Shown: piece after piece, positions 14,937 to 16,835 of the stretch | Layout: every line of letters begins with the position of its first letter | Position numbering within the stretch: position 1 is the stretch's first letter | Origin: Senegalimassilia sp. | Lineage (GTDB): Bacteria; Bacteroidota; Bacteroidia; Bacteroidales; Muribaculaceae | DNA: 26,636 nt | Assembly (NCBI GenBank): GCA_963590085.1 | Contig: CAVAOU010000001.1 | Location: forward strand, 1 to 26,636 | Direction: 5' to 3' | Position numbers and translations under genes: made by a program | Notes under the pieces: generated by a model | The model's input: the letters and a program-made list of their open reading frames with translations, nothing else | Databases searched by the model: none | What the model was told of the DNA's origin: nothing

Positions 14937-14967
14937 CAAATATAAACAAACGGAGCGAGATTGCAAA
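14937..14967 (-). promoter_or_regulatory. Promoter for the DUF4836-like gene, overlapping the upstream terminator
   Basis: Minus strand TTTG (14967-14964) - N19 - TATATTTG (14944-14937). Confidence 0.6.
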
Positions 14968-14982
14968 ATCCCGCTCCGCTTT
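14944..14982 (-). terminator. Intrinsic terminator closing the three-gene phage-like cassette
   Basis: Minus strand GCGGAGCGGGATT-TTGC-AATCTCGCTCCGT followed by TTGTTT, about 20 nt after the stop at 14999. Confidence 0.7.
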
Positions 14983-14998
14983 CTGCTACTTCTCTCTC

Positions 14999-15451
14999 CT
15001 ACAGCCAATACGCCGCTCGGTCGGTGATGGTGGCCGCCAGGCGCAAGCCCGACAGCGCACTTGCCGCCATGTCGCGGAAGCGGTCGCACGCCTTGCTGCG
15101 CATGGCGTAGCAGTCGGCAAGCACCATCGCCGCGATGTAGCGCTCGGCATAGTGGCGCAGTGTCTTTGCCGGCACATCATCGACGAGGAGCAAGGGGAGG
15201 GCGAGCGTGGTGGCGTTGTCATCGTCGTCAACGGTAAACGCCTCGGCATCGACGATGCTCGCCAACTCGCCTGCGAGGCTGAGCCACGCGTTGCGGCAAT
15301 AGAGCGTGAGCAGGCGGCGGTTGTCACTCGAGATTATCGCCGGGCGGCGCTCTCCGTCGCTCATCAGCGCCATGCAGGCGCTCTCGGCATAGACGGTTTT
15401 CAGCACTTGGCTGATGCTGATTGAAATGGTTACTTTGCGTGTGTCTTTCAT
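14999..15451 (-). CDS. Hypothetical protein, possibly a phage head-tail adaptor/connector-like protein
   Basis: True start is probably MKDTRKVTISIS at 15451 (ATGA overlap with the upstream stop); 150 aa, mostly helical. The pattern '..TISIS..QVLKTVYAES..' and 'YIAAMVLADCY' recalls Bacteroidales prophage virion proteins. The product call is inference. Confidence 0.55.
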   Translation of the reverse strand: MKDTRKVTISISISQVLKTVYAESACMALMSDGERRPAIISSDNRRLLTLYCRNAWLSLAGELASIVDAEAFTVDDDDNATTLALPLLLVDDVPAKTLRHYAERYIAAMVLADCYAMRSKACDRFRDMAASALSGLRLAATITDRAAYWL

Positions 15452-15876
15452 TTTTGTTTGATTTTGTATAAGGTTAACAAGATTAGTGTCAATGCCGTGC
15501 CGAGCGCGGCTATCAGTGTCCAGCGGCACGGGCGAAGTGGCGTGGTGGCGGTTGCCGTGCTTGCCGACGACCGTTGCTCCTGCCGCTGGGCTATGCGCGT
15601 GGCGGTGTCGGTAGTGGCGGCGGATGCCTTGGTGGTGCGCCGAGCGGCGGCTATCCGTCTCACAGCCTGGCGCCCGGCTGTGTCGGGCGGATAAAACTCG
15701 ATTGCTACCAGCGTGGCGTCGCTCCCGCTCTCCGTGAGCACGCGGCGGCTGAAGGTTGTGGTGTCGGAGGCAACCACCGTGGCTCCCTCCGTTGTGGTCC
15801 GCTCCACCGCCTTGTGGCTGCGGCACCCTGCGAGGCTAAACAGCGCTGCGGCGGCTACGGCTGTTGCTGCTCTCAT
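15448..15876 (-). CDS. Lipoprotein with C-terminal TM helix (candidate unimolecular spanin)
   Basis: Lipobox LAGC-RSHK, Thr/Ser/Ala-rich periplasmic segment with IEFYPPD, C-terminal hydrophobic WTLIAALGTALTLILLTLY plus basic KIKQK tail. Confidence 0.65.
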   Translation of the reverse strand: MRAATAVAAAALFSLAGCRSHKAVERTTTEGATVVASDTTTFSRRVLTESGSDATLVAIEFYPPDTAGRQAVRRIAAARRTTKASAATTDTATRIAQRQEQRSSASTATATTPLRPCRWTLIAALGTALTLILLTLYKIKQK

Positions 15877-16252
15877 AGTAGATGATTTTTGATGCCTGTT
15901 TCTTCGACAGAAAGTAGCGCGACGCCTTCTGCTCGGCGAGCACCGTCGCCACCGCCTCGGGGATGGTGCAGTTGCGCTGGCTCACGGTGCGGCGCACGTG
16001 CTCGCCAATCTCCTCCCACATCTGTCTTTTCAGTCTGCTCCGTGCCGGGCACGGCTTGCCGTCGCGCAGCATCCCGTACATCATTCTCACGGCGTAGTCG
16101 TAACTCACATCGTAGCGCGGAGTGCCTGCCGTGAGCACTGCCTTCACCAGCGCGTCGCGGCTTTCGTAACTGTCGGCGTCGAACGTGGATTTCAGGCTTT
16201 CCCTCCACGTCGACATCAATTCTCGGTTTCTTTGGATTTTGTGTTCAAACAT
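15836..16252 (-). CDS. Basic hypothetical protein with internal duplication, of a type seen in Bacteroidales prophages
   Basis: Start MFEHKIQRNRELM at 16252. Two similar halves: LVKAVLTAGTPRYDVSYDYAVRMM and AVATVLAEQKASRYFLSKKQASKII. Confidence 0.65.
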   Translation of the reverse strand: MFEHKIQRNRELMSTWRESLKSTFDADSYESRDALVKAVLTAGTPRYDVSYDYAVRMMYGMLRDGKPCPARSRLKRQMWEEIGEHVRRTVSQRNCTIPEAVATVLAEQKASRYFLSKKQASKIIYYESSNSRSRRSAV

Positions 16253-16274
16253 AGTATTGATTATTTTTTGTTTG

Positions 16275-16307
16275 CAAATATACACCAATTATTGGCTATT
16301 TTGCAAA
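16275..16307 (-). promoter_or_regulatory. Promoter for the phage-like cassette
   Basis: Minus strand TTTG (16307-16304) - N21 - TATATTTG (16282-16275). Confidence 0.6.
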
Positions 16308-16378
16308 TCTTTTATTGGTTATTTGCCAACAAGAGTACTTTTATCCACAAAAATTGTCAATTTATCGCATATAAGTGC

Positions 16379-16424: not shown

Positions 16425-16835
16425 ATGAAATCACTTATCAAATCAGTTGCCTTCACAATGTTTGCGATTGCAATGTGCATTGGCTTCGTTTCATGTGACA
16501 ATGACACTAAAGGCGATTTTTTGTATGATGTAACAGTATCTAGCGACACTTCTACTGCTTCTTACATGAGCTACAAGTACTCAGGTGCAGAGTCTGCAAT
16601 CTTCACTGAAGTTGAGAAGGTTGCTAAGTCTGTTGACTCTTCAAGCACAACTGTAATCATGAACGGTAAGGAGAAAGATTGCCTCAAGGCTCTCAAGGCT
16701 GCCGTTGACAAAGGTATGGACTCTGTAGAAGCAGCAGAAACTTACGGCTCTTTCTACGATCTTTCTGAGACTACTGTCGTAATCAAGGACAAGGACAGCA
16801 AGGTTGTTTACAGCCGTACATTCAAGAAAAAATAA
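16425..16835 (+). CDS. Small hypothetical lipoprotein
   Basis: Signal peptide II with FVSC followed by acidic DNDTKGD; has its own promoter and terminator. Confidence 0.8.
   Translation: MKSLIKSVAFTMFAIAMCIGFVSCDNDTKGDFLYDVTVSSDTSTASYMSYKYSGAESAIFTEVEKVAKSVDSSSTTVIMNGKEKDCLKALKAAVDKGMDSVEAAETYGSFYDLSETTVVIKDKDSKVVYSRTFKKK

Follow-up and report, generated by a model that had tools for sequence, protein, structure and literature searches.

The question raised by the 26,636-nucleotide (nt) window analyzed here (the whole stretch, positions 1 to 26,636 of contig CAVAOU010000001.1, assembly GCA_963590085.1, from a member of the Muribaculaceae) is whether three overlapping genes of phage character lying among host genes, called A, B and C below, are random prophage debris or, as a first-pass annotation had proposed, one dispersed piece of a domesticated phage system such as a gene transfer agent (GTA). 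The results point, with a probability of roughly 0.9, to a real domesticated phage particle system that is vertically inherited and co-regulated and that is laid out in the genus as seven small operons (A-B-C; scaffold and capsid; portal; head gene X; large terminase; holin and M15 endolysin; and a nozzle-like gene). That this system would act as a GTA is the reading that its gene content somewhat favors.

The structure of the cassette was confirmed when the whole window was read: three intact frames on the minus strand overlap (by 41 nt between A and B and by 4 nt between B and C) and run from a promoter to a terminator-like hairpin, the latter overlapping the promoter region of the adjoining host gene. 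The -7 and -33 elements of the A promoter, assigned by the Bacteroidota promoter consensus, are TATATTTG and a TTTG located 21 nt upstream of it. The composition had been called host-like, and the GC content of A, B and C (0.58, 0.64 and 0.63) and their GC content at third codon positions (GC3; 0.78, 0.71 and 0.82) compare with 0.53-0.60 and 0.68-0.79, respectively, in five neighboring host genes. The neighborhood is free of an integrase, as had been claimed, in the sense that none was seen among the long open reading frames (ORFs) of the window, which we take from their translations to be the housekeeping genes lysS, gpsA, pgi, dnaX and bglX; a search of the window for transfer RNA genes found none.

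The prediction that orphan capsid, portal, terminase and endolysin loci would exist elsewhere in the same genome held for all four, using as queries the proteins of portal-A-C clusters from relatives (Table 1). These modules consist of one to three genes each between host genes and are devoid of replication, integration or excision genes (a recombinase two genes from the nozzle-like gene is presumably the housekeeping XerD), although the genome is 78% complete and several modules reach contig ends, so that only one flank is visible. Replication, integration, tail-fiber and giant virion genes were not found with the set in this genome. The capsid belongs to PF17236 and the portal to the P22-like PF16510, and the Walker A, Walker B-like and HDD motifs are present in 16/16 terminases. 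The 'nozzle' label reflects the size and position of a phage homolog (E 1.6e-12), and a sequence search of the PDB with this protein returned nothing meaningful.

The distribution of the genes agrees with the predicted vertical, near-universal presence. Among 36 Muribaculaceae genomes, A was found in 34, the capsid in 34, the terminase in 33, the portal in 35, the endolysin in 26 and the nozzle-like gene in 25, and the first four are nearly always single copy; where a second copy was clear, it belonged to a true prophage (G013, G036), and the remaining double matches reflect genes that are split or interrupted by contig ends. A narrow profile of C matched 21/36 genomes, and with an iterated search each of the 36 A loci examined proved to have C next to A. 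In 24 genomes of other families there were no matches to the system genes, apart from one weak endolysin match. Relatives from other genera carry A and C after a P22-like portal, and five genomes representing five genera (G021, G026, G027, G028 and G030) hold a single unbroken operon of scaffold, capsid, X, portal, A and C between host genes. Across the order, the capsid was detected in 32/401 genomes, 21 of these matches being strong and spread over six other families, and all five sister-family genomes tested (five families) contain A, terminase and portal. The sister-family clusters are less reduced, with fiber-like genes, holin and endolysin beside the capsid and often a location near fumarate hydratase, and G323 and G359 preserve the order A-B-C, as does G314, where C is identified by position alone. 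Database records of capsid relatives are labeled Muribaculaceae, Barnesiella, Coprobacter and Caccoplasma. The genes flanking the modules vary widely between species, so the modules appear to move as units.

The ratio of nonsynonymous to synonymous substitutions (dN/dS; NG86 method, five close genomes, pairs not independent) had been suggested as a check for purifying selection, and it lies well below 1, at 0.05-0.50 over the six genes compared: 0.15-0.39 for A, 0.28-0.50 for B, 0.18-0.42 for C, 0.09-0.30 for the scaffold, 0.05-0.09 for the capsid and 0.13-0.19 for the terminase, with 0.03-0.09 for lysS. The gene trees share 5-9 of 12-16 splits with the lysS tree (with shuffled labels, a mean of ~0.2 and a maximum of 4), and A, B, scaffold and capsid show no supported conflict with it.

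Co-regulation is suggested by a TTTCYCTTTTTYGCGA-like element found upstream of the scaffold, X, portal, terminase, holin and nozzle-like genes at a fixed distance from TAnnTTTG. The element lies ~22-37 nt upstream of the -7 box, and the -33 element is displaced at these six promoters. A position weight matrix (PWM) was built from 45 sites in more distant members of the genus, excluding the genome under study and its four closest kin, and was used to rank the 798 -7 sites that have a downstream ORF; X, scaffold, holin, portal and nozzle-like gene occupied ranks 1-5 and the terminase rank 17. The promoter of A scored -34.6, against a median of -15.9; it lacks the particle element and has normal -33 spacing. 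The upstream motif that the annotation expected to be shared is therefore common to the six partner loci, but the A-B-C cassette has its own promoter instead. A site pattern from close kin gave 20 matches in four kin genomes and none in a reversed control (the sensitivity of this test is circular, its specificity is not); 17/20 matches precede particle genes (16 by profile and one, a holin, by coordinates), and the six matches in G013, a 99%-complete genome, correspond to the six modules. Variants of the element are specific to lineages, as exemplified by G026, where the scaffold and terminase promoters share a variant of their own.

The A promoter carries two imperfect palindromes, TGGCAAATAACCA and TTGCAAAATAGCCA, the second of which overlaps its -33 TTTG. 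By eye, palindrome-like elements occur at the same place in most A promoters of the genus and upstream of A in five sister-family genomes, and they are candidate operators for a repressor or for autoregulation. A genome scan with the A-promoter pattern identified no host regulon; a tandem-palindrome pattern missed the A promoter and found two other pairs, one with no nearby gene start and one before an unrelated host ORF.

The claimed internal duplication of A is supported by a profile alignment of its two halves (probability 97.5, E 6e-12), and its AlphaFold model (predicted local distance difference test score, pLDDT, 94.6) has six helices in two three-helix repeats. Phage homology, proposed in the first-pass annotation, was borne out for this protein by a PHROGs search, in which A is a member of phrog_27246 (E 1.5e-8), and by a profile of 35 host sequences that matches 76/82 phage or prophage loci selected by capsid similarity. 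The structural matches of A are weak, mostly to helix-turn-helix (HTH) or winged-helix domains, with a best Z of 6.7. Searches with A against the PDB and BFVD using Foldseek gave nothing at E <= 0.001, an ESM Atlas search with A and B gave unnamed clusters only, and no Pfam or NCBIfam family matched A, B or C above cutoff. A is read as an activator because it lies outside the regulon and because no other protein of the set was seen to have a fold resembling DNA-binding domains; it is rather likely that A activates the six particle promoters.

The third protein had been likened to head-completion proteins, and the matches of C do fall among adaptor folds and phage paralogs. In a structural search of 48,161 chains with its AlphaFold model (pLDDT 92.3), the top 20 rows were all phage portal-tail or neck structures; the best match had a Z of 9.9, a root-mean-square deviation of 2.5 and 100 aligned residues, and the P22 gp4 entry had a Z of 6.3. 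The value of 9.9 is below the caution line of ~13 for helical bundles, and since the Z values are moderate for such a fold, it is the consistent identity of the matches that supports the assignment. Foldseek against the PDB found none at E <= 0.001, with the Sf6 gp7 complex at a probability of 0.72. The profile of C matches tandem phage paralogs (E down to 3e-11) next to a nozzle-like gene, and the modeled protein is very probably a portal adaptor of the P22 gp4, T7 gp11 or HK97 gp6 type.

For B, described as a lipoprotein with a C-terminal transmembrane helix, the lipobox cysteine is invariant in 19/19 aligned sequences and the C-terminus forms a hydrophobic helix. The profile of B matches the lipoprotein of phage locus L410 (E 1.1e-8), where the gene order is holin-like, amidase-like, B, three adaptor-like genes and nozzle-like, so that the B-then-C order of the host repeats the lysis-neck junction of this phage. 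Further matches (E 4e-11 and 1.2e-6) lie in two prophage remnants of the genome under study, in each of which a B-like lipoprotein gene comes immediately after an amidase gene. Of these remnants (L274 on G000:C352 and L275 on G000:C192), one bears Mu-like genes by eye; the amidases on C352 and C192 were rejected as members of the system, as they sit in separate prophage remnants. A PHROGs search with alignments of B and C gave matches of unknown function or weak lipoprotein matches only. Unimolecular spanins of the T1 gp11 type (PMC6139136) combine an N-terminal lipobox with a C-terminal transmembrane helix, as B does, and in three phage or prophage loci a homolog of B directly follows an endolysin-type amidase gene, the comparison being one of anatomy. 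None of the 58 unimolecular spanins in that source has a periplasmic cysteine, unlike the B copy in the window, which has a non-conserved cysteine just before the helix. By anatomy and position, B is probably a unimolecular spanin; in this genome it is unlinked from the holin-endolysin pair. It was probably ancestral to the system, since sister-family clusters keep A, B and C in order.

Several results weigh against the reading of the set as a domesticated, co-regulated GTA with A as its activator. When the host PWM was applied to phage A-scaffold intergenic regions, 8/42 beat at least 38/40 shuffles and 4/42 had a site at the expected position; with the host motif silent in these regions and the fold matches of A weak, nothing ties A directly to the motif. 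Only 3/77 phage loci have a B-type lipoprotein gene upstream of the adaptors, and B is absent between A and C in 13 genomes from other Muribaculaceae genera (it was not sought elsewhere in them). Supported conflicts with lysS were found for C (six pairs) and the terminase (three), mostly via the outgroup, and correlations of gene-tree distances are weak (-0.16 to 0.52). Some copies are damaged, through either sequencing error or decay: A and B are fused and the capsid is split in G002, the terminase is split and the nozzle-like gene has a stop in G008, the portal is split in G025, and the start of B is affected in G016. No fiber, giant virion, ejection or separate small terminase gene was found in the 78%-complete genome with 896 + 1376 phage-ORF queries. 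Particle DNA from the mouse gut speaks for the reading: in untreated mice (before antibiotics), Muribaculaceae contributed a mean of 19% of the bacterial DNA recovered from virus-like particles, in a uniform or sloping pattern (also noted for Duncaniella) to which the authors assigned no mechanism (10.64898/2026.07.08.737213). The same paper notes, however, that membrane vesicles or generalized transduction could also account for such DNA.

The history suggested by these data is that an ancestor of the Muribaculaceae and about six sister families would have domesticated the late genes of a short-tailed temperate phage of Bacteroidales, which would have had a P22-like portal and an SU10-like capsid and been kin to Bacteroides phage BS-TP4. 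In the proposed mechanism, a signal would relieve repression at the operator-flanked A promoter, and A would then bind the TTTCYCTTTTTYGCGA-type element of the six operons and activate them in a manner like Mu Mor/C. Capsid, scaffold and portal would assemble, and the terminase would package chromosomal DNA into the heads, since no phage genome exists that it could prefer. C, together with X, would close the portal and take the nozzle, after which holin, endolysin and the putative spanin B would lyse the producer cell, and the particles would carry DNA to kin as a GTA. A more specific version, according to which this is the first GTA of Bacteroidota, core to about seven gut Bacteroidales families, comprising about eleven genes in Muribaculaceae, switched by the tandem-HTH protein A, lacking fiber and ejection proteins in Muribaculaceae and having a promoter element that diverges with the host lineage, is tentative and falls slightly short of even odds.

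One alternative, although unlikely, is that host-controlled particles are made without gene transfer, as PBSX-like killers, decoys, or a means of programmed lysis or extracellular DNA release, with packaging incidental. It would account for the lack of detected fiber and ejection genes in this genome and for the portal of ~450-480 amino acids (aa) in Muribaculaceae versus 658 aa in phage, and PBSX does package host DNA without transferring it (PMC7667829). An intact terminase under strong purifying selection (dN/dS 0.13-0.19) argues against it, and no tail tube or sheath gene of the kind that a tailocin requires turned up in the six-operon regulon.

The role of A is subject to a similarly doubtful alternative, namely that A is a small terminase, or has a dual role, and that another factor activates the six promoters. 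In phages, A and the large terminase downstream of it share an orientation and are often separated by a rhomboid-like gene, and A is divergent from scaffold-capsid; no other small-terminase candidate was found, and the G20C small terminase is among the weak fold matches of A (Z 5.0). Small terminases combine an HTH with an oligomerization hairpin, and the model of A shows tandem three-helix repeats without an obvious hairpin. Moreover, Mu C (Z 4.8) and the NCBIfam model CD3324, which we take to represent a Mor-like family (E 0.002, below cutoff), match A equally weakly, A adjoins the terminase in no host locus examined, and the A promoter is outside the regulon that includes the terminase. The lineage-specific motif variants (e.g., in G026) are as expected of a fast-evolving activator, the role preferred here for A.

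It is improbable that the set is a helper-dependent or anti-phage device, in which head proteins encoded by the host would subvert or poison the assembly of related incoming phages and take fibers and ejection proteins from them. Relatives of the ancestral phage do still infect these hosts (as the prophages in G013 and G036), and fiber and ejection genes of the host set were not found, but lysis genes, a terminase and a probable activator are retained in the host set itself, host capsids share ~40% identity with phage capsids across a long branch, and the phage promoter element differs. Random prophage debris, to which a few frameshifted or split copies and the varying flanking genes could be ascribed, is refuted by family-wide single-copy conservation of open frames, dN/dS of 0.05-0.50, host-like GC3 and a promoter element shared by six loci.

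The closest phages known (the BS-TP4/BKO1-TP3/BF1-TP2 group and IMG/VR relatives) have homologous A, scaffold, capsid, X, portal, terminase, holin, endolysin, B-like lipoprotein, adaptor paralog and nozzle-like genes. Unlike the host set, they also carry a giant virion gene, long fiber-like genes, a rhomboid-like gene, three adaptor paralogs and early genes; they transcribe A away from scaffold-capsid, and their promoters show, by eye, a positioned late-promoter element of a sequence different from that of the host. In a capsid tree made by a quick method, a long branch with full support divides 22/23 phage rows from 43 host rows. The one exception, prophage L065, is on a very long branch and too divergent to place, and its position means that the host label needs two changes, leaving a single origin of the host capsids formally unproven.

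Among recognized GTAs, those of the Alphaproteobacteria (RcGTA and CcGTA) are siphovirus-derived multi-locus systems with a dedicated activator, GafA. The Muribaculaceae system resembles them in vertical inheritance, in purifying selection and in having head, lysis and accessory loci that are scattered and, as proposed here, controlled by one switch, and differs in that the presumptive switch A is a 138-aa tandem-repeat protein of phrog_27246 that matches no named family. FpGTA of Faecalibacterium prausnitzii (PMC12946183) is likewise a podovirus-like domesticated set in a gut commensal, at more than one locus, near-ubiquitous in its clade and equipped with holin and endolysin. It differs in its Gram-positive host, its two operons and its named genes for a small terminase, baseplate, fiber and receptor-binding protein; particles with packaged DNA have been demonstrated for FpGTA and are predicted for the Muribaculaceae system. 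Compared by description, the latter stands apart in its phylum, its up to seven loci, its spanin-like gene and its shared promoter element, and no fiber gene was found in the genus. The same source presents FpGTA as the first element resembling a GTA in the human gut and as one of very few outside the Alphaproteobacteria (PMC12946183). A full-text search, which covered few subscription journals, found no paper on a set of genes like this one in Bacteroidota.

In the mouse gut the Muribaculaceae predominate. If the GTA reading is true, the known GTAs would gain a further phylum, Bacteroidota, and a domestication event of separate origin, here spread through a whole family. If its more specific version also holds, overexpression of A alone would start particle production, and the system would account for the large share of Muribaculaceae DNA in mouse-gut virus-like particles. 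The cassette offers a candidate for the master switch together with a promoter signature by which the components of the system can be listed, and probable roles are assigned to three unnamed protein families (A, B and C).

Table 1. Positions of the cassette features in the window and of the partner modules on other contigs of the same genome.
Feature	Position	Strand	Description
Gene A	15836..16252	-	138 aa, basic, two three-helix HTH-like repeats, phrog_27246
Gene B	15448..15876	-	142-aa lipoprotein, C-terminal transmembrane helix
Gene C	14999..15451	-	150 aa, predicted phage portal adaptor (head-to-tail connector) fold
-7 promoter element of the A-B-C operon, TATATTTG	16275..16282	-	canonical spacing to -33
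Two imperfect palindromes, TGGCAAATAACCA (16328-16316) and TTGCAAAATAGCCA (16306-16293)	16293..16328	-	candidate operators
Intrinsic-terminator-like hairpin	14948..14981	-	operon end, 15 pairs
Scaffold and capsid	C3:5144-3362 (capsid L047:4735-3362)		single copy among host genes
Portal	C189:3070 to contig end		single copy among host genes
Head gene X	end of C356, start of C217		single copy among host genes
Large terminase	C64:5848-3971		single copy among host genes
Holin-like gene and M15 peptidase (endolysin)	C188:1648-2471		single copy among host genes
Nozzle-like gene	C14:12665 to contig end		single copy among host genes

The capsids of the genus, of sister families and of phages have an N-terminal hydrophobic leader of ~35-55 residues that resembles a membrane anchor (seen in L047, L046:9227-10663, L228, L468 and L469); it is missing in several other genera (e.g., P0065). 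Together with the rhomboid-like phage gene between A and the terminase (L046:7919-7443), it makes a membrane-tethered capsid assembly with intramembrane cleavage possible. The portal of 658 aa cited above is that of a prophage, against ~440-480 aa in Muribaculaceae, and open frames of ~660-700 aa occur in sister families; the scaffold measures ~120 aa in Muribaculaceae versus ~250-270 aa (L049 and L465-L467 compared with L440-L444 and L046). These predicted lengths suggest a progressive shrinking of portal and scaffold, which could mean that the head is small or that the portal has lost its barrel.

In G002, frameshifts on a single contig (L005, L059) affect the A/B junction (in an A-run) and the capsid, and represent sequencing error or recent decay. 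Capsids 64-96% identical to that of the genome under study occur in records labeled Ruminococcus, Eubacterium, Agathobacter, Wujia and Bacteroides fragilis (L177, L178, L195-L197 and L202), which are probably mislabeled assemblies. In the sister families, a membrane gene of the Bax-inhibitor-1 family directly follows C and fumarate hydratase directly precedes the scaffold gene (L468 in G314, L469 in G323, and L228). Within the window, a gene for a 136-aa lipoprotein (16425-16835, plus strand; GC 0.41, GC3 0.45), for which no family was found, diverges from A and stays beside it in the three closest genomes checked.

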